DNA of 64,000 nt, taken from assembly GCA_963760795.1 (NCBI GenBank), contig CAVXEP010000029.1:96001-160000 (forward strand), in the 5' to 3' direction. Position numbers and translations under genes: made by a program. The notes under the pieces are model-generated. The model was not told the DNA's origin and searched no databases. It saw only the letters and a program-made list of their open reading frames with translations. This stretch comes from an uncultured delta proteobacterium (GTDB lineage Bacteria > Desulfobacterota > Binatia > UBA9968). This document shows positions 11,434 to 33,232 of this stretch, piece after piece. Every line of letters starts with the position of its first letter. Position 1 is the first letter of the stretch.

Positions 11434-14148
11434 ATGGCCGTAAAAAATCGCCTCACCTACTCATTTAGCGCTGGTAAAGCTGAGGGCCATGCGCGAATGC
11501 GCGAGATCCTTGGTGGTAAAGGCGCCGGGCTCCATGAAATGACGCGCATCGGTATCCCAGTGCCGCCAGGCTTTACGATTCCAACCTCGGTGTGCAGCTA
11601 TTTTTATGCCCACCGTCGGCGCTATCCAGAGGGGCTAGAAAATGCAGTCGCCAATTCCCTAAGAAAAATTGAAAAGACCCTCGGTCGACGTTTTGGCGAT
11701 CCAGCAAATCCGCTGTTACTTTCGGTGCGTTCTGGTGCGCGCGAATCCATGCCCGGTATGATGGATACGGTGCTTAATCTCGGGCTCAATGACCGCACCG
11801 TGGAAGGTTTAGCGGTGCACTCGCAGAATCGACGATTCGCCTACGATTCCTATCGGCGCTTTGTCCAGATGTATGCGGATGTCGTGATGGGAATAAAATC
11901 TAATGACAAAGATGCCGTCGACCCTTTAACGCAAATTCTCGAAAGCAAGAAAGCTCGTCGCGGCATTCGCCATGACACCGAGCTTTCGGCCGATGATTTA
12001 CGCCAGCTGGTGACCGAGTACAAGCGCGAGATCGAATCAAGACTTGGAAAGGAGTTTCCCGTAGATCCCTATGAGCAATTGTGGGGCGCCATCGGCGCGG
12101 TCTTCGGATCGTGGAACAACGATCGAGCCATCGCCTATCGCGAACTTTACCGTATCCCGCATCATTGGGGTACGGCGATCACCGTGCAGGCGATGGTGTT
12201 CGGCAACCTCGGCGATGACTGCGCGACCGGCGTAACCTTTACCCGCGATCCTGCGAGCGGAGAAAAAAGCTTCTACGGCGAATTTCTGGTCAATGCCCAA
12301 GGCGAAGATGTCGTCGCTGGCATACGCACACCCAGATCGATAGCGGATCTCAAACAGATTATGCCGAAGGCTTTCGGCGCACTCCGGCGCATTTGCCAGC
12401 TTCTCGAAAGGCATTTTCGCGATGCGCAAGACATCGAGTTTACCATTGAAAACGGGAAGTTGTGGCTGTTGCAAACCCGCACCGGCAAGCGTACCGGCTT
12501 CGCTGCGCTGCGCATCGCCGTCGATATGGTCAGCGAACGGATCATCAGCCAGCGAGAAGCGTTACTACGGGTTGAACCGGATCAACTCAATCAGCTGCTG
12601 CGGCCCATCTTCGATCAGCAGGTTAAGGCGCGTGCACATCAGGAGAAACGTCTCCTCGGTCGCGGTTTGCCCGCCGGACCTGGGGCTGCCACCGGGCGAA
12701 TCGTCTTTTATGCCGAGGATGCGGTGGCTTGGAACCAGCGCGGCGAGCGCGTTATTCTTTGCCGCGTTGAAACCAGCCCGGACGATATTCGCGGCATGGA
12801 CGCGGCACAGGGTGTGTTGACTGCAAGGGGAGGGATGACGTCCCACGCCGCGTTGGTCGCCCGCCAGATGGGTAAAGTCTGCATCGCCGGCTGCGAAGCT
12901 TTACAAATTGACTATGCGGCGCGCACGCTTCAGGTCGGGCAAACCGAACTGCACGAGGGCGATTGGATTTCCATCGACGGTAACACCGGTGAAGTCTTCC
13001 ACGGTGAGATTCAAACGCTGCCTTCGGAGATTCTTCAGGTTCTACTGACCCGTTCACTGGAACCTCGGCAATCGAAAATTTACCGACATTTCACCAAACT
13101 CATGAAGTGGGCGGATCAAACTCGCAAGCTCGGTGTGCGAACCAATGCGGATCAGCCCGATCAAGCGGCCATCGCCAAGGCATTTGGCAGCGAAGGCATC
13201 GGCTTATGTCGCACCGAACATATGTTTTTCCAGGGTGACCGGATTCAAGCCGTGCGCGAAATGATCCTTGCCGATGATGAGACAGGCCGGCGCCGCGCGT
13301 TAGCGAAGCTGCTACCCATGCAGCGGCAGGATTTCAAAAGTATCCTTGAAATTATGGGTAATCTGCCAGTGACCATTCGCACTCTTGACCCGCCGCTCCA
13401 TGAGTTTTTGCCCAAGACCGATGCAGAAATCCGGGAGCTTGCTCAGGTTATGGGTGTTGCAGTGGAGACCCTGCGTAACAAGGTCAATGTGCTGCAAGAA
13501 TTCAATCCGATGTTGGGCCACCGGGGCTGCCGCTTGGGCATATCCTATCCTGAGATTACCGAAATGCAGGCACAAGCGATCTTTGAAGCCGCCTGTGAAC
13601 TCCGGCGAGAAGGCCAGAATCCATTCCCGGAAGTCATGATTCCCCTGGTCGGCTCGCGCCAAGAGCTCCATGAACAGAGGGTCATCGTCGACAAAGTCGC
13701 TAAACAGACGATGCAAACGTATGGCGTCAAAGTACACTATTCGATAGGCACGATGATCGAACTGCCGCGCGCCTGCATGGTTGCCGATGAAATTGCTGAA
13801 GAAGCGGAGTTCTTTTCTTTTGGCACCAATGATTTAACCCAAACTTGCTTAGGCCTATCACGCGACGATGCCGGCAAGTTCCTACCCAGCTACGTTCTTC
13901 AAGGTCTGCTGCCTGACGATCCATTTGTCAGTATCGATCGGGACGGTGTCGGTGCGCTCATGCGCATTGCTATCGCCAAAGGCCGCCAGCGCCGCAAGGG
14001 ATTAGAAATGGGTATTTGCGGTGAGCATGGTGGAGAAACGCGTTCAATAGAGTTCTGTCACCAAATCGGTTTGGATTACGTCAGTTGCTCGCCGTACCGC
14101 GTGGCGATCGCTAAATTAGCGGCAGCTCAGGCTGCACTACGTCAATAA
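11434..14148 (+). CDS. ppdK: Pyruvate, phosphate dikinase
   Basis: LGGKGA.L.EM, SVRSGA..SMPGMMDT, phospho-His motif GGMTSHAA, FFSFGTNDLTQ and GICGEHGG. Confidence 0.97.
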   Translation: MAVKNRLTYSFSAGKAEGHARMREILGGKGAGLHEMTRIGIPVPPGFTIPTSVCSYFYAHRRRYPEGLENAVANSLRKIEKTLGRRFGDPANPLLLSVRSGARESMPGMMDTVLNLGLNDRTVEGLAVHSQNRRFAYDSYRRFVQMYADVVMGIKSNDKDAVDPLTQILESKKARRGIRHDTELSADDLRQLVTEYKREIESRLGKEFPVDPYEQLWGAIGAVFGSWNNDRAIAYRELYRIPHHWGTAITVQAMVFGNLGDDCATGVTFTRDPASGEKSFYGEFLVNAQGEDVVAGIRTPRSIADLKQIMPKAFGALRRICQLLERHFRDAQDIEFTIENGKLWLLQTRTGKRTGFAALRIAVDMVSERIISQREALLRVEPDQLNQLLRPIFDQQVKARAHQEKRLLGRGLPAGPGAATGRIVFYAEDAVAWNQRGERVILCRVETSPDDIRGMDAAQGVLTARGGMTSHAALVARQMGKVCIAGCEALQIDYAARTLQVGQTELHEGDWISIDGNTGEVFHGEIQTLPSEILQVLLTRSLEPRQSKIYRHFTKLMKWADQTRKLGVRTNADQPDQAAIAKAFGSEGIGLCRTEHMFFQGDRIQAVREMILADDETGRRRALAKLLPMQRQDFKSILEIMGNLPVTIRTLDPPLHEFLPKTDAEIRELAQVMGVAVETLRNKVNVLQEFNPMLGHRGCRLGISYPEITEMQAQAIFEAACELRREGQNPFPEVMIPLVGSRQELHEQRVIVDKVAKQTMQTYGVKVHYSIGTMIELPRACMVADEIAEEAEFFSFGTNDLTQTCLGLSRDDAGKFLPSYVLQGLLPDDPFVSIDRDGVGALMRIAIAKGRQRRKGLEMGICGEHGGETRSIEFCHQIGLDYVSCSPYRVAIAKLAAAQAALRQ

Positions 14149-14276: not shown

Positions 14277-16004
14277 ATGGAACCACGCATAGCGGAACTT
14301 CTTGTCAAAGGCGGCATTGTCTCCCGCGAACAACTCTTTGAAGCGCAAAAAGGAGAGAAGGAAAACAACTCCACCATCGCCAAGGAACTCGTTCGATTAG
14401 GTTTGACCACCGAAGACACTCTCGCAGAATTTTTGGCCAAGCAATTTGGTATCGAGTGCGTTGAACTGGTCGCGGCCGACATCGACGACTCGGTCTTTTC
14501 CGTAGTACCCCCGCAGATTGTTCAAAAGCACCAGCTCATTCCCTACAAGCTGATCGGCTCTACTTTAACCGTTGCCATCGCTGACCCGACAGATCTAGTC
14601 GCCATCAACGAGGTCAAGTTTGTCACTGGTTACGGTGTCCGGGCCTTGATCGCCACCCCCACTGGAATAAGGAAGGTTCTAGAGCATCGTTTTGGCGGGG
14701 TGAGCTACGACGATGTGTTAAAAAAATTCGGCGACGGCGAGATGGAGGTCGTCCAAGAAAACGACGACGTCAATCTGCAAGAGCTGCAGCAAGCCACCAT
14801 GGATGCACCGGTGGTCACGCTTGTCAACGCGATCTTGGCGGATGCCGCCAAACGTCGCTGCAGCGACATTCATATCGAGCCCTACGAGAAAGTGTTTCGG
14901 GTACGGTTCCGCATTGACGGTGTGCTCCAGGAAATCATGAGTCCACCGTTGCGGCTCAAGAATGCCTTGGTATCCCGTCTGAAAGTCATGGCGGGACTCG
15001 ACATCGCCGAGCGCCGTTTGACCCAAGACGGCCGCATCAAGCTCAAGATGGGTACGGGCGGTGAGTTGGATATCCGCGTATCGATTTTGCCCACTCTGTT
15101 TGGCGAGAAAGTCGTCATGCGCTTGTTGGACAAGTCCAACTTGCAGCTTGACATGGCCAAGCTCGGCTTCGATCCGCCAAATTTGAAAGACTTTCAAGAC
15201 GCGATTCATAAGCCTTACGGCATGATCCTGATCACCGGTCCGACCGGTAGCGGTAAATCGACAACGCTTTACTCAGCGTTATCTGAACTCAACAAACCGG
15301 ATGTGAATATTTCCACCGCCGAAGATCCCGTCGAGTACAATCTGATGGGTATCAATCAGGTACAGGTCCGAGAGCAGATCGGCCTAAATTTCGCCGCGGC
15401 CTTACGATCATTCCTACGTCAAGACCCGGATATTCTCATGGTCGGTGAAATCCGCGATCTGGAAACGGCGCAGATAGCTATTAAAGCAGCGCTCACCGGC
15501 CATCTAGTTTTGAGCACGCTGCATACCAACGACTGTCCCGCCACCGTCGATCGACTGATCAATATGGGTGTGGAAACATTTTTATTGACCTCTTCGATCA
15601 ATCTCATTCTAGCGCAACGATTAGTTAGAAAAATCTGCGATAAGTGCAAAGAGCCGATCGAGATCAAACCGGAAGTTTTGATTAATCTTGGGATCGATGC
15701 CGCCGATATCAGCGCGGGCTTTCCGACTTTTCACGGAAAGGGTTGCGCGAACTGCAGTGGCACCGGCTATCGGGGCCGCTTAGCCGTTTACGAAGTGATG
15801 GTGATGCATGAAGCAATCAAGGAACTGATCAATAAAGGCGTATCGTCGATGGAACTCAAACGCGAAGCGGTAAAGCTTGGCATGAGCACTCTACGCATGA
15901 GTGCCTTGCAGAAAGTTCGCGACGGATTCACCACCGTGGACGAAACCATTCGCGTGACCGATACGGATAAAGGGTTTGGCTCGGTGTTCTCGCTGGGGTT
16001 TTAA
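14277..16004 (+). CDS. pilB: Type IV-A pilus assembly ATPase PilB
   Basis: MshEN-like N-terminus, GPTGSGKST, LRQDPD..MVGEIRD, STLHTND and tetra-Cys motif. Confidence 0.95.
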   Translation: MEPRIAELLVKGGIVSREQLFEAQKGEKENNSTIAKELVRLGLTTEDTLAEFLAKQFGIECVELVAADIDDSVFSVVPPQIVQKHQLIPYKLIGSTLTVAIADPTDLVAINEVKFVTGYGVRALIATPTGIRKVLEHRFGGVSYDDVLKKFGDGEMEVVQENDDVNLQELQQATMDAPVVTLVNAILADAAKRRCSDIHIEPYEKVFRVRFRIDGVLQEIMSPPLRLKNALVSRLKVMAGLDIAERRLTQDGRIKLKMGTGGELDIRVSILPTLFGEKVVMRLLDKSNLQLDMAKLGFDPPNLKDFQDAIHKPYGMILITGPTGSGKSTTLYSALSELNKPDVNISTAEDPVEYNLMGINQVQVREQIGLNFAAALRSFLRQDPDILMVGEIRDLETAQIAIKAALTGHLVLSTLHTNDCPATVDRLINMGVETFLLTSSINLILAQRLVRKICDKCKEPIEIKPEVLINLGIDAADISAGFPTFHGKGCANCSGTGYRGRLAVYEVMVMHEAIKELINKGVSSMELKREAVKLGMSTLRMSALQKVRDGFTTVDETIRVTDTDKGFGSVFSLGF

Positions 16005-16086: not shown

Positions 16087-17313
16087 ATGGCTATATTTGT
16101 TTGGGAAGGGCGAACCGCACAGGGGCGAATCGTTAAAGGCGACACTCTCGAGGCGCCGAATCTCGAAGCCGCATTAGCGCGCCTGCGCGAACAGCGGATA
16201 CGGCCCGTTGCCAACAAGGTACGGGAAAAGGGCGCTGGGCTTGATAGAGAATTAAATATCCCCGGCTTTGGCCCCACTGTCTCGACAAAAGAAGTCTCTG
16301 TGGCTACCCGGCAGCTGGCGACGATGATCGATGCCGGCCTGCCGATTGTGCAGTGCCTCGACATCCTTGGTGAACAGTCCGAGAACAAGTTGCTACGCAC
16401 TACGATCAACACTGTACGCCGGGATGTCGAGGGTGGCTGTACGCTTGCAGACGCGTTGCGGAAACATCCAAAGATCTTCGATGACCTTTACGTTAACATG
16501 GTGGAAGCGGGAGAGGCCGGCGGTATTCTCAACACCATCCTCAATCGAATCGCACTATTTATAGAGAAAGCGAGCAGGCTAAAAAAGAAGGTCAAGGGAG
16601 CAATGATCTACCCCGTCGCCATCGTAATGGTGGCGATCATTGTCGTCGCCGTGTTGATGATTTTTGTCATCCCAGTCTTCGCCGATCTCTATGGCAGTAT
16701 GGGAAAGGCACTGCCGGCGCCGACGCAGATTTGTATCAACATCAGTAACGTTTTCGTCGCTTATTGGTGGCTCATGTTGGCGATCGGTATCGGCGTCGTG
16801 ATGGCCATCAAGTTCTACTACAAGACACCTCATGGGCACATGAACATCGATCGGCTACTTTTACGGCTGCCGGTGATTGGCGACTTGCTCAGAAAGGTTG
16901 CTGTAGCGCGGTTCACGCAGAATATGGCGCTGTTGTTGAGTTCTGGAGTCCCGATCCTCGACGGTTTAGCGATTACGGCCAGAACCGCGGGCAATAAAGT
17001 TGTCGAGAAGGCCATCATGGAGAGCCGGGCGAGCATCAGTAAAGGTAACACCGTGGCTGATCCATTGCGGGAAAGTAAGATTTTTCCGCCTCTGGTTTGT
17101 CAGATGGTTGCCGTAGGCGAAAGCACTGGTGGGCTAGATGTGATGCTCCGGAAAGTCGCGGAACTGTATGAAGAAGAAGTCGATGACGCGGTCAACAATT
17201 TAACAGCTATGATGGAACCGGCGATTATGGTGGTGTTAGGCGTCATCCTCGGTGGCTTGGTCGTTGCTATGTATTTGCCGATCTTCCAAATGGGCTCACT
17301 GGTTGGCAACTAA
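16087..17313 (+). CDS. pilC: Type IV pilus platform protein PilC (GspF family)
   Basis: RQLATMI.AGLP, AGE.GG.L, KVKGAM.YP, MVAVGE.TG.L and AMYLPIF motifs. Confidence 0.95.
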   Translation: MAIFVWEGRTAQGRIVKGDTLEAPNLEAALARLREQRIRPVANKVREKGAGLDRELNIPGFGPTVSTKEVSVATRQLATMIDAGLPIVQCLDILGEQSENKLLRTTINTVRRDVEGGCTLADALRKHPKIFDDLYVNMVEAGEAGGILNTILNRIALFIEKASRLKKKVKGAMIYPVAIVMVAIIVVAVLMIFVIPVFADLYGSMGKALPAPTQICINISNVFVAYWWLMLAIGIGVVMAIKFYYKTPHGHMNIDRLLLRLPVIGDLLRKVAVARFTQNMALLLSSGVPILDGLAITARTAGNKVVEKAIMESRASISKGNTVADPLRESKIFPPLVCQMVAVGESTGGLDVMLRKVAELYEEEVDDAVNNLTAMMEPAIMVVLGVILGGLVVAMYLPIFQMGSLVGN

Positions 17314-17364: not shown

Positions 17365-19416
17365 TTGAGTGACGAACGAAAAGATCTGAACGAGAAAATC
17401 AGATGGTTACTCCTGCTACGGGTAGTTATCCTTAGCGTTTTTCTCGGCGCGACGGCGCTCTTTCATTTCTTCCAAACGGAGTCAGACATCCGTTTCCTTG
17501 TCAGTCTCTCTGTACCGCTAATCCTTGCCTACGCGATCTCGATCGCTTCGGCGCTGTTCTTGCCGCGGTTGAATCATCTGCGCGCATTCGCTCATGCCCA
17601 AGTCACTTTTGACGTTTTTCTAATTACCGGGATTATTTGGATCACCGGAGATAGCTCCAGCCCATTTTCTTTTCTCTATAACTTAGCCGTGATCGACGCG
17701 GCTATATTATTGTTCTACCGAGGCGCGTTTATCGCCGCGGGAAGTTCAAGCATATGTTATGCTGCGCTGCTCTTTTGGGCGCAACATTGGTGGCAAAATG
17801 GCAATACTGCGGCGGTATCTGGGCCGTCGTTAGTTACCATGGTTATCAATATCGGCAGTTTCTTCGTGATCGCCGGCCTGAGCGGATTTCTCGCCGACAA
17901 GCTTGGCGAAACTCAGAAGCTGTTGAAAGAAAAACAGATCGACTTTCAGGAGCTCGATGCATTCAAAGAAGCGCTCTTGCAGGGTATTGGCAGCGGCGTT
18001 GCCATTACCGATAATCAGGGTCGCATTAACTATTTTAATCAGCAAGCGCAGAGTTTGATTTCGCTTGCTGAAGCTGCGGTGATGGGCAAGCGGCTCGATC
18101 AAATCATCCTCGGCTTGCGATATGATTTTCGACGCGGAGATCGTAGTGGTGCCGTGTATAGCGAAGAGCTTCCGTTACCCGGCTTGCAGGGAAGCCAGAA
18201 ACAAATCCGACTGACGCTCGCTCCACTCAGCGATTCCAACCAACAGCTGCTCGGGTATGTCGCCATTTTCGAGGATGTCACAAAACAGAAACAGACCGAA
18301 GAAAAAGTTCGCATCGAGGAAGAACTGCGCAGATCGCGGGAAATCGAATTACCGGCATCTTCTAAGGGTCTCGATTCGGTGCCTTTTCGCTTCGAAGGAG
18401 TCGTAGGCAAAAGCGGGGGCATCGAAAAAATCTACCAACTCATTCAAAAGGTCGCGGCCGGCTGCACCAACGTCTTGATTTCCGGTGAAAGTGGCACTGG
18501 AAAAGAACTGGTGGCTAGGGCGATTCATTTAAACGGACCGCGGCAAGGTAAGCCTTTTGTCGCCGTCAATTGCGGCGCCATCCCAGAAACTTTGATTGAA
18601 AGCGAATTATTCGGTCACGTACGCGGGGCTTTTACCGGCGCCGTGGCGGATCACAATGGGTTATTCAAACAAGCGGATCAGGGAACCATATTTCTCGATG
18701 AAGTGGGTGAATTGCCGCTGCACCTCCAAGTCAAACTATTACGCGTGCTGCAAGAGAAAAGCTTCACGCCGGTCGGTGCTAACAAACCGGTTAAGGTAGA
18801 CGTGCGCGTGATCTCGGCGACCAACCGGGATCTGCGCAAGGAATTGGAGGAAGGAAGATTCCGCGAGGACCTTTATTACCGGCTCAACGTTGTCCATATG
18901 GTATTGCCGCCGCTGCGCAGCCGCAAAGAAGATATCCCCTCCCTTGCCCACTACTTCCTCCGGAAATTCGCGGCTTCCCTTGACAAGAACGTCGAAGAAA
19001 TATCTAGCGGAGCGCTGATGCAGCTGATGAACCATACGTATCCTGGAAACGTCCGGGAGTTGGAAAACATCATAGAGCACGCTGTGGCGGTGACCAACAA
19101 GAATATCCTGACGGATGAGGATCTACCACTTCAAGTAAAAGGTGTACCGAGCGCCGATGATACCAATGCGTTCGACCGGACTACACTGGGTGGTGCGGAG
19201 GTATTTTTCAATAAAGGGCTGTCGTTAGATGTTGAGCTAGAGACCCATGAAAAATATATATTGGTGGGCGCGTTAAAGCGCGCCAATGGCGTTCAGAAGA
19301 AGGCGGCGGAAATCCTCGGAATCAATTATCGTTCACTGCGTCATCGCTTGGAAAAATATGAGCTTCTTGGATCAAAAAATCATTCTTTTTCTGAACAAAC
19401 CAATGATTCCGAATAA
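17365..19416 (+). CDS. PilS-like transmembrane/PAS sensor fused to a PilR-like sigma54 activator (AAA+ and Fis HTH); no HisKA, HATPase or receiver domain
   Basis: About six hydrophobic segments (WLLLLRVVILS, D..LIT..I..TG..SSPFSFLY), PAS (GVAITDNQGRINYFN...FEDVT), then GESGTGKE, ESELFGH..GAFTGA, FLDEVGE, FREDLYYRLN, YPGNVRELEN and HTH KAAEILGINYRSLRHRL. Confidence 0.88.
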   Translation: MSDERKDLNEKIRWLLLLRVVILSVFLGATALFHFFQTESDIRFLVSLSVPLILAYAISIASALFLPRLNHLRAFAHAQVTFDVFLITGIIWITGDSSSPFSFLYNLAVIDAAILLFYRGAFIAAGSSSICYAALLFWAQHWWQNGNTAAVSGPSLVTMVINIGSFFVIAGLSGFLADKLGETQKLLKEKQIDFQELDAFKEALLQGIGSGVAITDNQGRINYFNQQAQSLISLAEAAVMGKRLDQIILGLRYDFRRGDRSGAVYSEELPLPGLQGSQKQIRLTLAPLSDSNQQLLGYVAIFEDVTKQKQTEEKVRIEEELRRSREIELPASSKGLDSVPFRFEGVVGKSGGIEKIYQLIQKVAAGCTNVLISGESGTGKELVARAIHLNGPRQGKPFVAVNCGAIPETLIESELFGHVRGAFTGAVADHNGLFKQADQGTIFLDEVGELPLHLQVKLLRVLQEKSFTPVGANKPVKVDVRVISATNRDLRKELEEGRFREDLYYRLNVVHMVLPPLRSRKEDIPSLAHYFLRKFAASLDKNVEEISSGALMQLMNHTYPGNVRELENIIEHAVAVTNKNILTDEDLPLQVKGVPSADDTNAFDRTTLGGAEVFFNKGLSLDVELETHEKYILVGALKRANGVQKKAAEILGINYRSLRHRLEKYELLGSKNHSFSEQTNDSE

Positions 19417-19610
19417 CAAAATTTGTCAAACCGCCAATTACCACATTCCGTAAATTTGAATCTTCTAGATTTATATCCCTTTCTTTGATGTCCATTGATT
19501 TGCAGCGAGAATTTCTAACCTATTGAATTAACGTAGTTTTGAGCGAACTAAGTTGATAGGCTGTCAATATTCTTCCCCCAATTCCGTCACTCAACAGCCT
19601 TGCCAAAGTT

Positions 19611-19625
19611 TGGCCTTTCAATTGC
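19611..19625 (+). promoter_or_regulatory. Sigma54 (-24/-12) promoter of pilA
   Basis: TGGCCTTTCAATTGC = GG-N10-GC, about 150 bp upstream of pilA and just downstream of a sigma54 activator gene. Confidence 0.75.
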
Positions 19626-19773
19626 GTTAGTGAGGTTTCAACGGTTTAGATTTTATAACGCTTATTCTCAAGGAGGTGGCTATCGACGGCATTGAAGCCC
19701 TGACCATAGAAAGTTTCTGAAAAGGAAAAAGCTTTGAAGTAGAAAAATAATTCCGAAAAAGGAGTGTCTAGAG

Positions 19774-20163
19774 ATGAAGAAATTACGTTCGCAAAGTGAA
19801 TCTGGTTTTACCTTGATCGAGTTGCTGGTGGTGGTTGCCATCATCGGTATTTTGGCGGCGATCGCGATACCTCAGTTCGCGGCTTATAGAAAGCGCGGCC
19901 ATGAGGCTCAGGTTAAATCCGATTTGAGAAATGCTGCGGTGGCCCAAGAAGCCTATTTTGCCGCGAAATCAACTTATCTTGCTGCTACGATGGCGAGTGG
20001 TACCCCTCCCGGGTTTAATGCGACCACCGGTGTTACAGTGATCGCGGCCGTCGTTGCTAACTCCAATGCCTTCACGCTGACCGCCCAGCACACAAATTGC
20101 AGCAGCAACACTTGGACATTCTCTAGTTCAACAGGCCAGATCACCGGCGCCGCTTGTCCGTAA
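19774..20163 (+). CDS. pilA: Type IVa major pilin
   Basis: Leader MKKLRSQSESG|FTLIELLVVVAIIGILAAIAIPQF with E5 and P22; C-terminal Cys pair; AGGAG RBS; terminator follows. Confidence 0.93.
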   Translation: MKKLRSQSESGFTLIELLVVVAIIGILAAIAIPQFAAYRKRGHEAQVKSDLRNAAVAQEAYFAAKSTYLAATMASGTPPGFNATTGVTVIAAVVANSNAFTLTAQHTNCSSNTWTFSSSTGQITGAACP

Positions 20164-20186
20164 CCTGCTCGATTTCCGACCTGTCT

Positions 20187-20224
20187 ATAAACAAGGGGGG
20201 CTCAGCTGAGCCCCCCTTGTTTAT
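20187..20224 (+). terminator. Rho-independent terminator after pilA (perfect 38-bp palindrome)
   Basis: ATAAACAAGGGGGGCTCAG|CTGAGCCCCCCTTGTTTAT followed by a T-rich tract. Confidence 0.85.
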
Positions 20225-20273
20225 TTCTTCCTTATTCAACGATGGTTTTATTCACACTCGATTAGATCGCAAA

Positions 20274-22673
20274 ATGATTCCTCAGAAATCGTTGCGCCTC
20301 GACTTGTTCGCTTTGCTCCTCTTGGCGATCTTTGTCGTAGGTTTTTGTCAGGATTTAGTATTTTGGGGTGAGGTGCCTTCTTACCGTGATTTGACTAACT
20401 ACTTCTATCCGCTTCGTTACAGCCTGTACGAAAGTTACCGTGCCGGAGAGCTGCCGCTGTGGGACCGTCGTTTTGCTCAAGGCTTTCCTAATCTTGCCGG
20501 GCTTCAATCAGGCGTGTTCTATCCTCCTCATTTAGTGTTCTTGGTACTTTCATTTTTTCAAGCTATTCGCGCACTTTTTATTTTCCATTTTTTCATTGCA
20601 GTGATTGGCACATATTGTCTATTGCGTAATTGGAACTATACGCGCGACTTGGCGATCATTGGCGCCTTACTCTTCACGCTAGGCGGTGTGACGGTTTCGC
20701 TCACTAATCTGCTCAATCATTTTCAAAGCGCGGTGTGGCTACCCTGGCTGATCTTGGTGTGGGAACGTCTGCTGATTCGGCCCCGCTGGAGTGCCTTTCT
20801 TTCATTCGTATTTGTTGCTGCGCTGCAACTGCTTGCAGGCTCCCCGGAACTGTATGCCATGAGTATGGGGTTAGTGTTACTTCATGCTGTCTGGATTCGT
20901 GACTCACGAACAGAAGTATCCTACGGCAGAATCGTCGGTCTTCTTTTGGCGGGTAACGTTGTCCTGCTATCGGCTATTATGGCCCAGGCTCTACCAACTT
21001 TCGAACTGCTGATGCAATCACGAAGAGGCCTCTCAATACCTCAGTCTGAAGCGCTGATGTGGTCCTTCGAGCCATCAAGCCTTTTGAATCTGTTTTTTCT
21101 AGACAAGGAGGTTGAGCCCGAGATTTCGGCCGGGGTGCGATTATATTTTACGCGGAAGGTTCCATTTCTACTCAGCAGCTACTTGGGGATAGCGGTGCTA
21201 TTCGGAGTTGCGCTTTGGCTTTGCTACGGGAGTCGACGGGAAAAACTTATTTTAACGGGTCTTAGCTTGGGCACACTAGCCTTGGCATTGGGTAGTAACG
21301 CGCTTCTTTATCCCTTCATACTTAAACACGTTCCGGCATTAACAGCCGTTCGTTTTCCCGAAAAATTATTCTTTTTAACAAATGCATTGCTGTTATTCAT
21401 GGCAATGCGAGGACTTCAGGCTTTTTCACTCGACCGAAAGAAAACAACTATTGGGCCGACAATTGTCATGGGCGTCATCTGTATTCTATGGGCAAGCGCG
21501 TATATTATCTCGGTTGCCAAATCGGAGCTCGTATCTGACTTCATTGCGCTGGCAAGTAATATACCGCCGCTTTCGGAAGCCCATGCAAAAGCCTCAGCTT
21601 CAGTATTAGCCAATCTACAACGACAGCTACTGCTCTCGCTAGCGCTAGCTTTTCTCTTAACTCTTACCAGAACGCAATATCTTAAGCCGACGTTTTGTTC
21701 AATCCTTCTTGTCTCGATTGTATTCGTCGATCTGACATGGGCGCACCGAAGCTTCCTGTTCACTCTTCACCCCAATAAAGTCAGTGCGAGTCCACCGGTT
21801 TTGCAGCCATCCGAAGCCGGTTCAACGAGATGGTTTTTCTATCCTGCTCCCCAGGACCTTCACCCGGCGTTTTTTACCGTATGGGGGCGACCTACGTATC
21901 GAGACGGAGTAGCGTTATCATATCAAAATTACTTGCCAAACGTCGGCGTACTCAGCGGAATCGAATATTTTCAGGAAATTGACGCGCTGCTTCGTAAACC
22001 TTATTCGGAATTTCTAAGTGTGGCGAACAGCATGAAATTCCAGAATCAGATCAAGTTATTACGGACGTTTAACGTTGGATATATCGTAAGTTTTCGCGAG
22101 CTGCCAGAGCAGGGCGTGCGACTGATTCGTCGCTTTCCAGAGTATTTCTCGTGGCTCTACAAAGTGGATAATACGATACCGCGGGTCGTGATCGTGCCGA
22201 GGTATACTGTGGAAAAAGAGCCAGCCAAGATCCTGCAACGCCTAGCATCCGCAGATTTTGATCCTGATAAAGAAGTAATACTGAGTGAACTTGTGACACC
22301 CAGGCCTTTAGCGATATTGAAAGCGCAAGCGAAGATCACAAGCTATAAGAACAGCCGGGTGACAATACAAGCAACGACTAATGAAGCTGGCATTCTCATC
22401 CTCGCAGATTCTTATTATCCTGGATGGAAAGCTTATGTTGATGGTAGCGAAACAACGCTTTTGCGGGCCAATCACTTTTACCGAGCTGTGGAAGTCTCGA
22501 AAGGTAATCATAAAGTGGAATTCCTCTACGATCCCTTGTCATTTAGAGTCGGTATGATTGTTTCATCAGCCACTCTTCTTATACTCGGATTTGTGTCATT
22601 ATTACTGTTTCTGCGACGACGCCCAGGTTTTGTACGAGCGCCCGCAGCAGAATTGGACCTCGCCAAATTCTAA
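20274..22673 (+). CDS. YfhO-family multi-pass membrane protein (GT-C glycosyltransferase-like)
   Basis: RD...YFYP, GELPLWD....G.P, FYPP, RFPEK and C-terminal LILADSYYPGWKAYVDG...GNHKVEFLYDP.SF; start set at MIPQKS. Confidence 0.8.
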   Translation: MIPQKSLRLDLFALLLLAIFVVGFCQDLVFWGEVPSYRDLTNYFYPLRYSLYESYRAGELPLWDRRFAQGFPNLAGLQSGVFYPPHLVFLVLSFFQAIRALFIFHFFIAVIGTYCLLRNWNYTRDLAIIGALLFTLGGVTVSLTNLLNHFQSAVWLPWLILVWERLLIRPRWSAFLSFVFVAALQLLAGSPELYAMSMGLVLLHAVWIRDSRTEVSYGRIVGLLLAGNVVLLSAIMAQALPTFELLMQSRRGLSIPQSEALMWSFEPSSLLNLFFLDKEVEPEISAGVRLYFTRKVPFLLSSYLGIAVLFGVALWLCYGSRREKLILTGLSLGTLALALGSNALLYPFILKHVPALTAVRFPEKLFFLTNALLLFMAMRGLQAFSLDRKKTTIGPTIVMGVICILWASAYIISVAKSELVSDFIALASNIPPLSEAHAKASASVLANLQRQLLLSLALAFLLTLTRTQYLKPTFCSILLVSIVFVDLTWAHRSFLFTLHPNKVSASPPVLQPSEAGSTRWFFYPAPQDLHPAFFTVWGRPTYRDGVALSYQNYLPNVGVLSGIEYFQEIDALLRKPYSEFLSVANSMKFQNQIKLLRTFNVGYIVSFRELPEQGVRLIRRFPEYFSWLYKVDNTIPRVVIVPRYTVEKEPAKILQRLASADFDPDKEVILSELVTPRPLAILKAQAKITSYKNSRVTIQATTNEAGILILADSYYPGWKAYVDGSETTLLRANHFYRAVEVSKGNHKVEFLYDPLSFRVGMIVSSATLLILGFVSLLLFLRRRPGFVRAPAAELDLAKF

Positions 22674-28312: not shown

Positions 28313-28721
28313 CCAGCTGTTCGAGCCCAGGGTCGATGCACCGCCGAACTTGAGCTGTAAGATCGTGCTAATCCAGGCGTAGCGGCAAATCCGGGGTCCA
28401 AACTGCAGTCTGGCTAGACTAGATGCGTTAGTATTTTTCTGAGAGCGTTACTTGGAATTCAGACTACTTCTTTGTGTCTTTCAAGATTTCATTCAGAAGC
28501 TTGCGAATCGGTTCCATTTCACTCCACTCGGGACGGCTATCGATGTCCGTGTACTTTTCGCCTGGTTTGCGTCTGACATCGGGTATTTACCTATGAAAAA
28601 TCACCGGTTGAAACAAAAGAACCATCACGGTTCGACGACGAATCGATGTACCTCACAGCTGGCCGGTACAAGTGGATGGAATTCAGTTCGTCACGCCGAA
28701 TGCGCTTGCGCTCGCAAGTTC

Positions 28722-28751
28722 TTGACACGAATAAACATGCGAGGGTAGTAT
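28722..28751 (+). promoter_or_regulatory. Putative sigma70 promoter
   Basis: TTGACA-N18-TAGTAT upstream of the hydrolase gene. Confidence 0.6.
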
Positions 28752-28819
28752 CGCCGAGACATTATCCTACGTTGTAAGACATCGGACAATTACTGGTATA
28801 GAAGTTGGAGGAGAAACAC

Positions 28820-29689
28820 ATGGCTTCGAAGGAATTGGACGCCATCGCGCCCTTTGAGAAATATTACGATGCCGCCGGCATTCGCACGCGTTGCTTTGAG
28901 AAGGGTGAAGGCAAGCCGCTCATCTTACTTCATGGTGGTGGCGGCCATGCTGAAACATGGGTCAGAAATATTCTACCGTTGTCACAAAAGTTTCGCGTTC
29001 TAGCCATTGATTATCTTGGTCACGGCTATACGGACAAACCCCATATCACTTACAACATCGATGCTTTCTCCAAGCATTTGATCGACTTCATGGATGCCGC
29101 CGGGATCACGAAAGCTCATCTGGTCGGCGAATCGCAGGGCGGGCAGATCAGCGTGTTGACTACCTACAGACACCCGGAACGGGTTGACAAACTGGGGCTC
29201 ATCGTCGGCGGTATTCCCTCCAACGAACATGGTTACATGGCGGGGCAGAACCGACTGCAAGACTTGAGCCGTGATGCCACCGAGAAACCGACTAAGGAAA
29301 CGATTCGAAAACGCATGGAGTGGCTGTTTCACGATCCGAAAACGTTGCCGGACGAGTTGGTCGAAATCAGATTGAAAATCTACAGCAACCCAGATTTTCA
29401 GCGCGTGTCCAAAAGCGGCGATCGCACGATCTATAATCTGATTGACAAGATTCCCAAGCTGCAAACACAAATCCTCTTTTTCTGGACCACCCATAATCCC
29501 ACCTGCCCTTGGCCGGTGGCGGACAAGGTTCACCAGTCAGTGCCGGGCTCGCGGTTTGTGCTCGTGGATAAATCGGGTCATTGGCCGCAGTACGAGAGGT
29601 ATGAAGAGTTCAATCGCGTACTTCTTGAGTTCTTTGACGATAGGCAAGATGAAGTTCTGATCGACACCTATCGAAAACGTTACTGGTAA
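28820..29689 (+). CDS. Alpha/beta hydrolase (meta-cleavage-product hydrolase-like)
   Basis: LLHGGGG, GESQGG nucleophile elbow, SGHWPQ.E; GGAGG RBS. Confidence 0.85.
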   Translation: MASKELDAIAPFEKYYDAAGIRTRCFEKGEGKPLILLHGGGGHAETWVRNILPLSQKFRVLAIDYLGHGYTDKPHITYNIDAFSKHLIDFMDAAGITKAHLVGESQGGQISVLTTYRHPERVDKLGLIVGGIPSNEHGYMAGQNRLQDLSRDATEKPTKETIRKRMEWLFHDPKTLPDELVEIRLKIYSNPDFQRVSKSGDRTIYNLIDKIPKLQTQILFFWTTHNPTCPWPVADKVHQSVPGSRFVLVDKSGHWPQYERYEEFNRVLLEFFDDRQDEVLIDTYRKRYW

Positions 29690-29744
29690 GACTCTGCAAT
29701 GGTACTGGTGTCATGTTTTTAAGTCACAACCGAGACGATCACCC

Positions 29745-29946
29745 AGACGATAAGAAGACCGCAAAGATTATTCTCGGCCGCGTTACTGTTGCTTTGCGCA
29801 GGCATCTCGCATGCCGGTGAAGCACGGCAAGCAGCCTCGGACGAGTGGGAAAAGATTTTAGCGGAGGCAAGCAGGCTGGGAAGGTGACTCTTGTAATCAA
29901 CCTGGGCACGCCGGAATTTCGCCAAGCGGTGACGACCGCTTTTGCC
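29745..29946 (+). pseudogene. N-terminal remnant of an ABC solute-binding protein
   Basis: LFSAALLLLCAGISHAGEARQAASDEWEKILAEA / KQAGKVTLVINLGTPEFRQAVTTAFA matches the W..I...AK.EG start of the intact paralogues; frameshifted and truncated. Confidence 0.7.
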
Positions 29947-29955
29947 CTCCCTGGG

Positions 29956-30035
29956 TGTCGCTGAACGCAACGAAGCATCTCGTCGTTTCTGCCGCTTATG
30001 AGGACGAGGTTCCTCGGCTTCGCCTCGGAATGACA
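29956..30035. repeat. REP-like imperfect inverted repeat pair
   Basis: TGTCGCTGAACGCAACGAAGCATCTCGTC ... GACGAGGTTCCTCGGCTTCGCCTCGGAATGACA. Confidence 0.6.
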
Positions 30036-30084
30036 TCATGACACAATCTCTCAAGCCGCTAGGCTGGCGACAACACTTTAGGAG

Positions 30085-30173
30085 CCCTTCGACGAAGCTC
30101 AGGCGAACGGATAAAAGCTTTATTTGTAATGTCTGACAACCGTTCGTGGTGAGCCCAGTCGAACCATGAACGG
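30085..30173. repeat. REP-like imperfect inverted repeat pair (second type)
   Basis: CCCTTCGACGAAGCTCAGGCGAACGG ... CCGTTCGTGGTGAGCCCAGTCGAACC. Confidence 0.65.
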
Positions 30174-30262
30174 GGTTTTCACACCGCCTGTTGAAGAGGA
30201 TGATCCCCTCCCGCGAACCCACAAAGTCTTTCCCTGCCTCAAGATGCGGCGGTTGTTTTAAA

Positions 30263-31120
30263 CTATGCGCCAAGAAAATCTGTAATGAGCTTACTGACGA
30301 TGGCCGGCTGATCGTTCTGCACTTGATGTCCGGCGTTGGCGACGTAATGAAACTTTATCTTGGGCAGCATTTTTTCGAGTTGCCGTCCGAGCTCCACCGG
30401 GGCAAAACCGTCGTCCTCGCCCCAGATAAAAATCGCCGGGATCGTTAGCTTGGGCAGCGTGTCGCGCATGTCGTACTTGAGCCGCAGGTTGGCGTCCTTG
30501 GTGAGCCGCTGCTGGCCCTGTTGAAATAACTGCCGCGCGGCTTCGGCGCCCGGGCGATTGGCGCAGTCGTTGCGAACTTTGACCAGCTCGTCGGTGATCA
30601 AACTCTTGTTCCACACAATGGTTTGCAGGAATGCCCGCATGGATTCTTCGCTGCCGTTGTAGGCGCGGATCGCTTTCATGCCGGCGGTCATCGGTATTTC
30701 CATGCCCATGGCGCCGGCGATGGTATTGCTCGCGATTAGCACGAGCTTGTCGACGCGATCGGGATGTTCCAGCGCGTATTTGGCCGCGACCCAGGCGCCT
30801 TGGGAGTTGCCGCCGACGATGGCTCTTTCGATGCAGAGCGTGTCCATGAAAGCTTCGAGCTGGTCGGCGCGGCTTTGCACACCTTCACTAGCGGGAAAGT
30901 AAGGATCGGTTTCACCGAAGCCGCCGACACTGTCGGGAGCAAAGACCTCAAATTTAGGCGCGAGAGCCTGCATCGCATGGGCGAAGCCTGCTTCACCGGA
31001 CGAGCCAGGTCCGCCGCCATGGCACAACACCACCGCGGGTCCATTGTCGCCGCACTCACTGTAATGAGTGCGAATTCTTCCCGCCATTACATCGCGTTGG
31101 CGCAAAACAAATTCAGCCAT
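30263..31120 (-). CDS. Alpha/beta hydrolase (meta-cleavage-product hydrolase-like)
   Basis: HGGGPGSS, GNSQGA, WGEDD.F.P and AGHQVQ. Confidence 0.85.
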   Translation of the reverse strand: MAEFVLRQRDVMAGRIRTHYSECGDNGPAVVLCHGGGPGSSGEAGFAHAMQALAPKFEVFAPDSVGGFGETDPYFPASEGVQSRADQLEAFMDTLCIERAIVGGNSQGAWVAAKYALEHPDRVDKLVLIASNTIAGAMGMEIPMTAGMKAIRAYNGSEESMRAFLQTIVWNKSLITDELVKVRNDCANRPGAEAARQLFQQGQQRLTKDANLRLKYDMRDTLPKLTIPAIFIWGEDDGFAPVELGRQLEKMLPKIKFHYVANAGHQVQNDQPAIVSKLITDFLGA

Positions 31121-31244
31121 GTTTATTTTCCTCCGATCGGCGCTTGTAGTTGGCGCGCGTGTGATCGCGCGGTTTGTCCCAAATGTTAGGTTCGAGAAAT
31201 GTGTAGGCGTGGGACGAAGCCATGGCGGCGACCAGTTGACCCAT
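31113..31244 (-). pseudogene. Truncated N-terminus of a class III extradiol dioxygenase
   Basis: Own translation MGQLVAAMASSHAYTFLEPNIWDKPRDHTRANYKRR..., paralogous to MGSLVAALASSHAFAVAPPEKWDELRERNRTVYAQR (33362..34321); GAGG RBS retained. Confidence 0.8.
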
Positions 31245-31283
31245 GGGTTTGTTCCTCTCCGGTGCGGTTTTGCCGGTGGTGAC

Positions 31284-32312
31284 TTACGGGTTGGCGCCCT
31301 GTTTCTGTTTCTCGGCGAGCATCATCGCTACCTCGACGATCATATCCTCCTGGCCGCCGACGACTTTGAGCTTGCCCAGCTCGACCAGAATATCGCGGGC
31401 ATCGACGCCGAACTGCTCGGCGGCCTTGTCGGCGTGCAGCAGGAAACTCGAGTAGACGCCGGCGTAACCCATGGTGAGACTCACTTTGCCGATGCGCACC
31501 GGCTTGGGCATGATCGGCCGCACGATATTCTCCGCTACGTCCATGATCTTCCACAGATTGATTCCGGTCTCGTAACCCATCTTGTCGAGCACGGCGGCGA
31601 TGACTTCCGTCGGCGTGTTGCCCGAGCCGGCGCCGAGGCCGCAGGTGCAAGCGTCGATCCAGCGCGCGCCGGCCTCGATGGCGGCAACGCTATTGGCGAC
31701 CGCTAGGGACATATTGTTGTGACCGTGAAATCCAACGCCGATTTTGAGCGCGTCGCGCAACGCGGCGACGCGTTGGCGCACGGTGTCGGGCATAAGCGCG
31801 CCCGCCGAATCGGTCACCAACACAACGTCGGCGCCGTAGCTCTCCATCAGCTTTCCCTGTTCGGCGATTTTTTCCGGCGCGGCCATGTGCGACAACATCA
31901 GCATGCCGATCACTTCCATGCCCATTTTCTTGGCGACGCCGATGTGCTGCTCGGCGATGTCGGCCTCGGTGACGTGAGTAGCGATCTGCGCCACCTTGGC
32001 GCCGTAATCGGCGGCCATTCTTAAATCATCCTTGGTGCCGATGCCCGGCAGCAGCAAGACGGCGAGCTTGCCTTTCTTGATGACCTCGGAGGCCGCTTGG
32101 ATGAGCTCCATCTCGGACTGTTTGGAAAAGCCGTAGGTGACCGTCGAGCCGCCCAGACCATCGCCATGGGAGACTTCGATGATCTCCACGCCGGCATCGT
32201 CCAAACCGCGCGCCACGCTGCTGACTTGCGCGGCTGTGAGCTGGTGGCTCAGCGCATGGCTGCCGTCGCGCAAAGAACTGTCGAGAATGTGGATGAAAGT
32301 TTTTTCTGTCAC
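31284..32312 (-). CDS. mhpE: 4-hydroxy-2-oxovalerate aldolase (DmpG/MhpE)
   Basis: [47 protein letters not shown]; GTG start overlaps the stop of the dehydrogenase. Confidence 0.93.
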
Positions 32313-33232
32313 AGGGTTGCCTCCGCCTTTGGCTTTTTCCAAGTGCCCGCCACCCAATGGCGGGCAATCTCTTCGCCGACTTTCACCGCCGCCGAAGTCA
32401 TGATGTCTAAGTTGCCGGCATATTTGGGGAGAAAATCCCCCGCGCCCTCGACTTCGACGTACAGGGTGACTTTCTTTTTGCGCCCGCTGTTGGGCTGATC
32501 TTCGATCAATGGTTTAGCCCGCAGGCGATAACCCGGCACATATTGCTTGATCCGCTGAACCATGGATTCAATGGACTCAAGGATCTTGTTGGCGTCGCCA
32601 TCCTCCATCAAGCCATAAACCGTGTTGCGCATGAGGATCGGCGGCTCGGCGGGATTGAGCACGATGATCGCCCTGGCACGGGCGGCGCGACCGATCTTCT
32701 CCAAGCCGCGCGCCGTGGTGTCGGTAAATTCGTCGATGTTTTGCCTGGTGCCTGGACCGGCGCTTTTGCTGGCGATGGTGGCGACGATTTCAGCGTACTC
32801 CACGGCAGCTACCTGTTGGAGGGCGGCCACGAGCGGTACGGTTGCCTGACCGCCACAGCTCACGAGATTCACATTTGATTCACCTATATGCTCTTCGAGA
32901 TTTACCAACGGGATCACGTAGGGACCCACCGCCGCGGGGGTCAAATCGATGGCAATTTTCCCCGCCCCGCGCAGCAGCGGCGCATGTTTCTTGTGGGCGC
33001 TTGCAGTGGTTGCATCGAACACCAAGACAAATTTATCTTGCTGCTTGAGCAATCCCTCGATGCCTTCAGTAGTAATCGCCAGTCCCTCCTGGCGCGCCCG
33101 CGCCAACCCCTCGGATTCCGGAATGATGCCGGCCATGATCACGGGATCAAGGAGGCTACTGCGTTTCAGTTTGTACATGAGATCCGTGCCGATATTGCCG
33201 GAGCCTAAAATTGCTATGGGGGTTTTCGCCAT
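32309..33232 (-). CDS. mhpF: Acetaldehyde dehydrogenase (acylating; DmpF/MhpF)
   Basis: [36 protein letters not shown] and YAGNLDIMT. Confidence 0.95.

Follow-up and report, generated by a model that had tools for sequence, protein, structure and literature searches.

The subject of this work is one gene in a stretch of 64,000 nucleotides (the window) of contig CAVXEP010000029.1, which belongs to genome G000 of an uncultured bacterium of the class Candidatus Binatia. The gene (positions 17365-19416) lies between pilB-pilC and pilA and encodes a single polypeptide, the fusion protein, in which the six-helix membrane domain and the PAS domain of a PilS-type sensor are joined to the AAA+ and DNA-binding domains of a PilR-type sigma54 activator. 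By definition, this protein is a bacterial enhancer-binding protein (bEBP), and it is devoid of the receiver that defines PilR and of the phospho-acceptor His and ATPase domain that define PilS. In our opinion, it is probably a phosphorylation-independent one-component activator of pilA, integral to the membrane. Unassembled pilin in the membrane, by analogy with Pseudomonas aeruginosa, would be the likeliest input, with chances a little short of even.

The open reading frame (ORF) of 683 amino acids (aa) starts with TTG; only two more codons are open upstream of it (685 aa), no alternative ATG, GTG or TTG is present upstream of the first transmembrane helix (TM1), and GAGG is located 10 bases 5' of the start. 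The initial annotation of the window, made from its letters alone, had described an ORF of this length in the pilS-pilR slot, carrying the LLLR19VV motif, a PAS domain, a short linker, GAFTGA, Walker A and B motifs and a Fis-type helix-turn-helix (HTH) domain, with H-box, HATPase and receiver absent. All of these statements agree with the translation, the Pfam results and the profile boundaries given below, and the linker text EEKVRIEEELRRSRE...FRFEGVVGKS occurs in the protein as quoted. A domain scan found 6TM_PilS, PAS, Sigma54_activat (PF00158, aa 347-512, 242.9 bits), AAA_lid_14 (PF25601, aa 518-597, 84.8 bits) and HTH_8 (Table 1); HisKA, HATPase_c and Response_reg gave no Pfam match at E<=0.01. 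None of the NCBIfam equivalogs reaches its cut-off, the best alignments being those of PrdR (374 bits vs 795), NifA and TyrR. The Walker A, Walker B and GAFTGA motifs are invariant across an alignment of 46 sequences.

Of the features expected of a bEBP, the following are present: PF00158 with Walker A/B and GAFTGA, a C-terminal Fis-type HTH and an rpoN gene in the genome (TIGR02395, 445.8 bits, over cut-off); as to activation of a -24/-12 promoter, a conserved promoter-like element precedes pilA. With PilR the protein shares the AAA+-HTH part of the PilR clade and the position of its gene beside the major pilin with a sigma54-type promoter; the N-terminal receiver with its phospho-acceptor Asp was found neither by Pfam nor by the PilR profile, whose alignment begins only at position 137 of 463. 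With PilS it shares the 6TM_PilS domain with the conserved TM1 Arg, and the phospho-acceptor His of the dimerization and histidine phosphotransfer domain (DHp) and HATPase_c are missing, the PilS profile ending at position 333 of 562.

The boundaries of the two parental parts were established with profiles built from 103 kinase-type PilS and 24 PilR sequences. The PilS profile covers aa 3-321 from its position 7 onwards and ends some 11 positions short of the AHEIRNP H-box, and the PilR profile covers aa 340-671 up to its position 459, so that 18 residues (aa 322-339) are outside both. Breakpoints are alike in all ten fused sequences compared, with the PilS part ending at profile positions 322-336 and the PilR part starting at 117-142. 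According to BLASTP, aa 1-321 share 27-30% identity with PilS and aa 341-672 share 44-52% with PilR. The column of the kinase His, filled by His in 98% of 104 kinases, contains R325 in the fusion protein and His in none of nine fused representatives. When 1.84 billion cluster representatives were searched exhaustively, residues 1-345 as a query gave 15604 matches at E<=0.001; among the best 150 of these, 113 are 500-800 aa long, nine of them fused and 104 not. Five of the 104 non-fused proteins were submitted to Pfam, which found 6TM_PilS with HisKA and HATPase_c in P0138, P0139, P0143 and P0145, and 6TM_PilS with HisKA and PAS in P0264.

In a tree of AAA+-HTH sequences (75 rows, quick IQ-TREE), the fusions and the PilRs that adjoin PilS kinases (25 PilR rows) are on one side of a branch with a value of 98, and 22 of 24 other bEBPs of the same genome are on the opposite side. 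The fusions of Binatia form a clade of 22 rows with a value of 99. Two more fused sequences, P0163 and P0142, were placed by this quick tree apart from the Binatia clade, among PilRs, and P0142 has only two fused relatives. Repeated independent fusion was considered and is not claimed, because the approximately unbiased (AU) test does not reject a single clade of all 24 fused rows (p = 0.668), and the tree constrained in this way is in fact better by 8.3 log-likelihood units. A scan outside Binatia was carried out on genome contigs with the N-terminal parts of P0142, P0141 and P0163; two peptide patterns matched only 237 stretches, and 80 loci were obtained, five of them fused. Three of the five are labelled Binatia, and the other two, which bear the labels 'Deltaproteobacteria' and 'uncultured bacterium', group within the Binatia clade. 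The remaining 75 loci are not fused: the TM domain and kinase core are in one ORF in 73 of them, in pieces in one, and one gene is cut by the locus end. Where the flanks are present, these genes follow pilB, pilT and pilC, and in 28 loci a bEBP gene comes directly after.

Pfam, the tree and the profiles bear out the fusion proposed initially, in which a 6TM+PAS part of PilS type is joined to an AAA+-HTH part of PilR type, with neither kinase nor receiver. These sequences show an origin from PilS and PilR, and the simplest history is one in-frame loss of the kinase core and receiver from an adjacent pilS-pilR pair. What was lost would have begun approximately 10 residues before the phospho-His and included the ATP-binding domain and the entire receiver, ending a few residues short of the AAA+ domain.

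No frame break was seen at the fusion junction, in agreement with the initial annotation, which had also advised a check for mis-assembly over positions 18290-18400. This PAS-to-AAA+ junction is bridged by contigs of four runs from four studies with no joints reported, namely the DNA runs X1 (study P1, window positions 18139-19232) and X5 (study P2, 17962-18761) and the RNA libraries X15 (study P8, 18173-18397) and X16 (study P9, 18206-18431). That the gene is a product of mis-assembly or a functionless remnant of a deletion is hardly conceivable in view of these contigs, of the same architecture in more than 100 genomes and at least 120 protein clusters, of dN/dS values well below 1 in every module and of the intact catalytic motifs. 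In its favour are the frame breaks of the orthologue in L084 and L091 (two of the 20 loci examined) and in L178. Frame breaks or stops split the orthologous gene in these three genomes; pilB and pilC beside it are likewise broken in L084, an indication of sequencing errors in this assembly.

The distribution of the fusion was studied in 301 genomes of Candidatus Binatia that are at least 80% complete and represent 20 families, including one unpublished genome (G201). A 6TM_PilS match was found in 158 of them, and the whole fusion protein as a query matched in 106 genomes at E<=1e-110. These genomes belong to 12 families: f1, the family of the window (24 of 28 genomes), f2 (2/4), f4 (3/4), f6 (1/1), f7 (3/3), f8 (11/19), f9 (13/51), f12 (12/16), f13 (13/16), f15 (18/26), f18 (4/5) and f20 (1/1). 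At the same threshold, no match was obtained among the searched genomes of f3 (0/21), f5 (0/12), f10 (0/52), f11 (0/23), f14, f16, f17 and f19. Family f3 belongs to the same order as the window; 6TM_PilS is matched in 0 of its 21 genomes, and its best AAA+ matches (L174, L175) belong to ordinary kinase-bEBP pairs that have no pil genes in their vicinity. As a rule, the matches extend in one frame from residues ~1-10 to ~590-683, and the exceptions are fragments at contig ends, one split gene (G029) and three PAS-AAA+ paralogues. The fusion is not a one-off: of the 20 families of Binatia sampled, 12 have it as the usual form at the pil locus.

A synteny search, also proposed initially, was made on 20 loci chosen from the list of 6TM_PilS matches to span nine families, a choice biased to good matches. 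In 19 of them, the order is pyruvate phosphate dikinase-pilB-(pilT)-pilC-fusion, with 17 genes intact and two with frame breaks; the remaining locus (L087) contains a kinase. Directly upstream of the fusion gene pilC was found in 19/19 cases, and a pilin gene follows downstream in 14/19. Genome G031, from the same order as the window, has the fusion at pilB-pilC-X-pilA and also a separate classic pair of PilS (kinase) and PilR followed by two other pilin genes (loci L176 and L177). In family f8 (G087, G094, G101, G108, G122, G129 and others), the match ends at residues ~590-599, at the end of the AAA+ lid, and the open frames are 795-1618 aa long; the C-terminus may differ there, or the frames may be over-extended.

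Residues 1-345 were also used in a word-indexed protein search, in which 7999 candidates were scored and 639 matches at E<=0.001 were obtained. All of the matches listed, at least 120, carry PF25323 and PF00158, and 117/120 also carry HTH_8, the three others being entries of 408-580 aa. The listed matches are 62-98% identical to the query and are named 'sigma-54 interaction domain-containing protein [Candidatus Binatia bacterium]' or 'response regulator PilR (NtrC family)'. Since receiver-less fusions bear the latter name in some sources, Binatia genomes would be misscored as having a PilSR phosphorelay.

The sensor part retains the signature of kinase-type PilS. The TM1 Arg (R19) is present in 104/104 kinase-type and 9/9 fused representatives, and Q79, D83, T94, G95, S99, F101, Y105, G120 and A125 are common to PilS kinases and fusions. 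All modules are under purifying selection: against four relatives with unsaturated dS, dN/dS is 0.04-0.10 for the TM module, 0.06-0.20 for PAS, 0.10-0.41 for the linker, 0.03-0.06 for AAA+ and 0.05-0.14 for the C-terminus with HTH. The fusion gene is the only 6TM_PilS match in its genome, and among approximately 26 bEBPs of that genome only its product has several hydrophobic segments. In the AlphaFold2 (AF2) model (mean predicted local distance difference test (pLDDT) 78.8, predicted template modelling score (pTM) 0.40), membrane helices occupy residues 2-37, 42-68, 72-94, 100-143 and 153-207 and are followed by the strands of a PAS fold (211-304), a helix (306-326), the AAA+ domain and HTH, with disorder predicted for 327-338 (pLDDT <50) and 594-618. 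Six TM passes and a basic N-terminus suggest that both termini are cytoplasmic. A prediction of the complex of residues 1-200 with mature PilA (residues 12-129) scored 0.00 in two runs, in which the controls were not folded, and has no bearing on binding in either direction.

The linker between PAS and AAA+ is 41 aa long in 97 of the 116 fused sequences parsed. In the family of the window it is well conserved as KQKQxEEKVRxEEELRRxRE and then becomes variable. It is conceivable, if quite unlikely, that the disordered tether (aa ~327-345) is cut in a regulated manner to free a soluble AAA+-HTH fragment that activates pilA, so that the membrane domain would serve for sequestration only. Such a fragment would sidestep the building of a ring in the membrane, and the predicted disorder, the variation of tether length and sequence between families and the highest dN/dS of the five modules in the linker are all compatible with cutting. 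However, a plain anchor needs neither the full PilS signature (R19, Q79, D83, TGG-S-F-Y) nor a conserved PAS domain, both of which are under strong purifying selection; moreover, no conserved protease gene is present in the locus, and the first 20 residues of the linker are well conserved within the family of the window.

The spacer of 357 bases between the fusion gene and pilA contains candidate promoter and enhancer elements (Table 1). The GG-N10-GC promoter reported initially was recovered as a -24/-12 element, TGGCCTTTCAATTGC, whose orthologue occurs in 13 of the 15 Binatia spacers that were scored and in 12/12 spacers of close relatives that reach its column in an alignment of 14 rows. 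Upstream of it, the candidate upstream activating sequence (UAS) TTGTCA begins 7 bases past the fusion stop codon and is aligned in genus-level relatives. Of 21 orthologous spacers, 17 contain TTGTCA 5' of the -24/-12 element, with a maximum of 10 in shuffled spacers; the count of 17 overstates independence because many spacers come from close kin. The core of the PilR site in P. aeruginosa is probably TGTC; no passage to this effect is contained in PMC7170775. A block that lies past the candidate UAS and before the promoter, TTCTAACCTATTGAATTAACG, is conserved in genus-level relatives and may be a DNA-bending site similar to that of integration host factor (IHF). Rfam models gave no match at E<=1 over 19380-19820.

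The closeness of the candidate enhancer to the gene's own stop codon and the membrane proteins encoded by the neighbouring genes could also be explained by a constitutive activator without signal input, whose anchor only keeps it near the locus, which would be held at the membrane while PilC, the regulator and PilA are inserted co-translationally. We regard this explanation as very improbable, since the PAS domain and the signature residues of PilS are conserved, and the N-terminal domains of one-component bEBPs (DmpR, XylR, NorR, NtrC1) generally regulate AAA+.

The following mechanism for a regulated membrane activator may be proposed. With both termini of the six-helix domain in the cytoplasm, the input module, consisting of the PilS-type TM domain and PAS, would keep the AAA+ domain inactive and sub-hexameric through the post-PAS helix and a flexible tether of ~20 residues. 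A change in the state of the input would allow the protomers to form an ATP-hydrolysing ring, the Fis-type HTH would bind TTGTCA-type sites just 3' of its own stop codon, and the GAFTGA loops would remodel sigma54-RNA polymerase at the promoter; transcription of pilA would then end at the hairpin downstream of it (Table 1). By analogy with PilS of P. aeruginosa, a full pilin pool would switch the system off and a depleted pool would switch it on. In passages of PMC6058289 and PMC11960060, PilS of P. aeruginosa contacts PilA directly, accumulated membrane pilin lowers the activation of PilR, and PilA is the only PilS input named there. The whole of this proposal, namely that the fusion protein is the first integral-membrane bEBP, in which a PilS-type domain reads the pilin pool and gates the AAA+ ring without phosphorylation or proteolysis while the enhancer is held at the membrane, is less likely than not. 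According to the initial annotation, P. aeruginosa PilS senses membrane pilin through TM contacts that involve its R24 and E5 of pilin; no paper on R24 was found.

It is also possible, albeit rather unlikely, that a membrane one-component activator of pilA responds to something other than pilin, such as redox state, a metabolite, the state of the membrane or a surface cue. PAS domains commonly bind small ligands, and that of the fusion protein is conserved; in addition, the absence of a PilT match over cut-off in the genome weakens the analogy with sensing of a pool that is driven by retraction. On the other hand, the TM domain retains every position conserved in kinase-type PilS, and the gene adjoins pilA in most of the loci chosen, which, together with the role of PilA in those passages on P. 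aeruginosa, argues for pilin.

Several observations weigh against the pilin-gated membrane activator. No pilin gene was detected directly downstream in 5 of the 19 fusion loci. In G000, which is 89% complete, no pilT_fam match exceeds the cut-off, and the only weaker matches come from PilB itself and from an ATPase of 635 aa on contig C12 (a prepilin peptidase was found). The pili of this organism may be non-retractile; retraction, which replenishes the pilin pool in P. aeruginosa, would not do so without PilT. The PAS domain could carry a different signal of its own. Outside the family of the window, the linker varies from about 7 to 41 aa and is unlike in sequence (Gly/Ala-rich in P0135, 13 aa in P0163); because of this poor conservation and the modelled disorder, tight allosteric coupling is not evident. 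We know of no bEBP for which a hexameric ring of six-helix protomers and access to DNA at the membrane have been proven. The -24/-12 pattern by itself is not statistically rare: the window contains TGGC-N7-TTGC 8 times, where 3.7 would be expected, and a count of 8 is attained by 6 of 100 shuffles; it is the conserved place in orthologous spacers that makes the element more than chance. Finally, the run data are contigs, which show neither expression level nor RNA ends, and RNA libraries may carry DNA.

Comparison with known regulators shows what is unusual in this protein. PilS-PilR, a two-component system, has the same 6TM domain with an invariant TM1 Arg, PAS domain, PilR-clade AAA+-HTH, position between pilC and pilA and sigma54-type pilA promoter, and the order pilB-pilT-pilC-pilS-pilR-pilA, as in P. 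aeruginosa, was found in loci of Desulfuromonadales, Myxococcales, Nitrospirota and Acidobacteriota. In contrast, the fusion is one polypeptide with the activator integral to the membrane, and control by phosphotransfer and phosphatase is impossible because the protein lacks both the receiver and the kinase core, the latter from just before the phospho-His onwards. One-component bEBPs such as DmpR, XylR and NorR likewise have a sensor (PAS, GAF or V4R) joined directly to sigma54 AAA+ and HTH_8, and control independent of phosphorylation, probably by intramolecular repression, would be common to both; those proteins, however, are soluble, and the fusion has six PilS-type TM helices and AAA+ of the PilR clade. 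Regulators of the NtrC1/DctD type have a dimeric module at the N-terminus and a helical linker, which together keep AAA+ from forming a ring until the signal comes. The same logic is proposed for the fusion, although a phosphorylated receiver acts there and, according to AF2, a post-PAS helix followed by a disordered tether is present here. Proteins of the ToxR/CadC/TcpP type also combine a sensor and a DNA-binding activator in one membrane protein, and therefore, as with the fusion, target DNA must come to the membrane; unlike the fusion, to which they have no homology, they have a single TM helix, a winged helix, sigma70 promoters and no ATPase.

The initial annotation knew of no description of this architecture, and none of a fused PilS-PilR or a membrane-integral bEBP was found in the full-text literature, with subscription journals largely outside its coverage; databases list such proteins under generic or misleading names, one cluster of the Atlas being named 'PilS-like transmembrane/AAA...'. 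The fusion protein is possibly the first membrane-embedded sigma54 activator. Its function is inferred, and it looks like a natural short-circuit of a textbook two-component system in uncultured soil bacteria. PilS-PilR is the textbook circuit of pilin autoregulation, in which the passage of the signal through six helices to the cytoplasm is still not understood. Without the kinase/phosphatase layer, the output would be a direct read-out of the sensor state, which makes the fusion handy for dissecting PilS signalling. If the proposal is true, the pilus subunit controls its own transcription through one polypeptide. The protein also raises a question for sigma54 biology, namely whether an enhancer-binding ring is functional when six membrane helices anchor each protomer.

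Table 1. Features of the fusion gene and its surroundings (positions in the window)
Feature	Position	Strand	Basis or remark
Pyruvate phosphate dikinase gene	11434-14148		Upstream of pilB; Pfam/NCBIfam
pilB, type IVa pilus assembly ATPase	14277..16004	+	TIGR02538, 736 bits, over cut-off; T2SSE, MshEN
pilC, platform protein	16087..17313	+	T2SSF twice; PilC NCBIfam models
Fusion gene, PilS-type sensor + PilR-type sigma54 activator	17365..19416	+	ORF, Pfam, profile boundaries
6TM_PilS membrane domain, aa 4-186	17374..17922	+	PF25323, 67.4 bits, cut-off 27
TM1 Arg19 codon (LLLR19VV)	17419-17421	+	Translation
PAS domain, aa 200-309	17962..18291	+	Pfam PAS_4, PAS_9, PAS
Post-PAS charged helix, aa 306-326	18280..18342	+	AF2 helix; homologous to PAS-to-DHp helix of PilS
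Junction, aa 322-339	18328..18381	+	Matches neither PilS nor PilR profile; predicted disordered
Sigma54-interaction AAA+ domain + lid, aa 347-597	18403..19155	+	PF00158, PF25601
Walker A GESGTGK, aa 374-380	18484-18504	+	Translation
GAFTGA, aa 421-426	18625-18642	+	Translation
Walker B DE, aa 445-446	18697-18702	+	Translation
Fis-type HTH_8 DNA-binding domain, aa 625-665	19237..19359	+	PF02954, 41.5 bits
TTGTCA, candidate enhancer (UAS)	19423..19428	+	7 bases past fusion stop codon
Conserved block TTCTAACCTATTGAATTAACG	19513..19533	+	Genus-level relatives; between candidate UAS and promoter
TGTCAA, second such motif	19562-19567	+	
Sigma54-type -24/-12 element, TGGCCTTTCAATTGC	19611..19625	+	GG-N10-GC
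pilA, 129-aa prepilin	19774..20163	+	N_methyl, ComP_DUS, TIGR02532; G|FTLIE, Glu5 present
Intrinsic terminator-like hairpin 3' of pilA, 17-bp stem	20187..20224	+	

Further copies of TGGC-N7-TTGC on the forward strand are located at 17253-17267, in the last 60 bases of pilC and ~100 bases before the fusion start, and at 17988-18002, within the fusion gene; both may be chance matches. In the 5' leader of pilA, a block AAGGAGGTGGCTATCGACGGCAT (19670-19692), ~80 bases before the real ribosome-binding site, is conserved in genus-level relatives.

Contig C9 of G000 contains a cluster of three bEBP genes at 28406-33106 (L009, L013, L018); two of the C9 proteins are short (281 and 333 aa), possibly cut by locus ends, and were placed inside the PilR clade. 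Other membrane-embedded bEBPs may exist outside Binatia. One candidate is an Atlas cluster of 54 members with a length of 677 aa and a feature score of 0.99, described as 'commonest Bdellovibrionota'. A sigma54 regulator of 1011 aa from Planctomycetota aligns structurally over residues 2-660 of P0272 with a TM-score of 0.53 (Atlas).

In family f1, pilC follows pilB directly, without pilT, and the order in other Binatia families is pilB-pilT-pilC. Directly 3' of pilA, an ORF of 839 aa (window 20154-22673) encodes a YfhO-like membrane protein; its listed TTG start precedes the terminator-like hairpin, so the true start is probably later. The YfhO-like ORF is kept after pilA in families f1, f20 and f4 and after pilR in several loci of Acidobacteriota, and its product is a candidate pilin glycosyltransferase.

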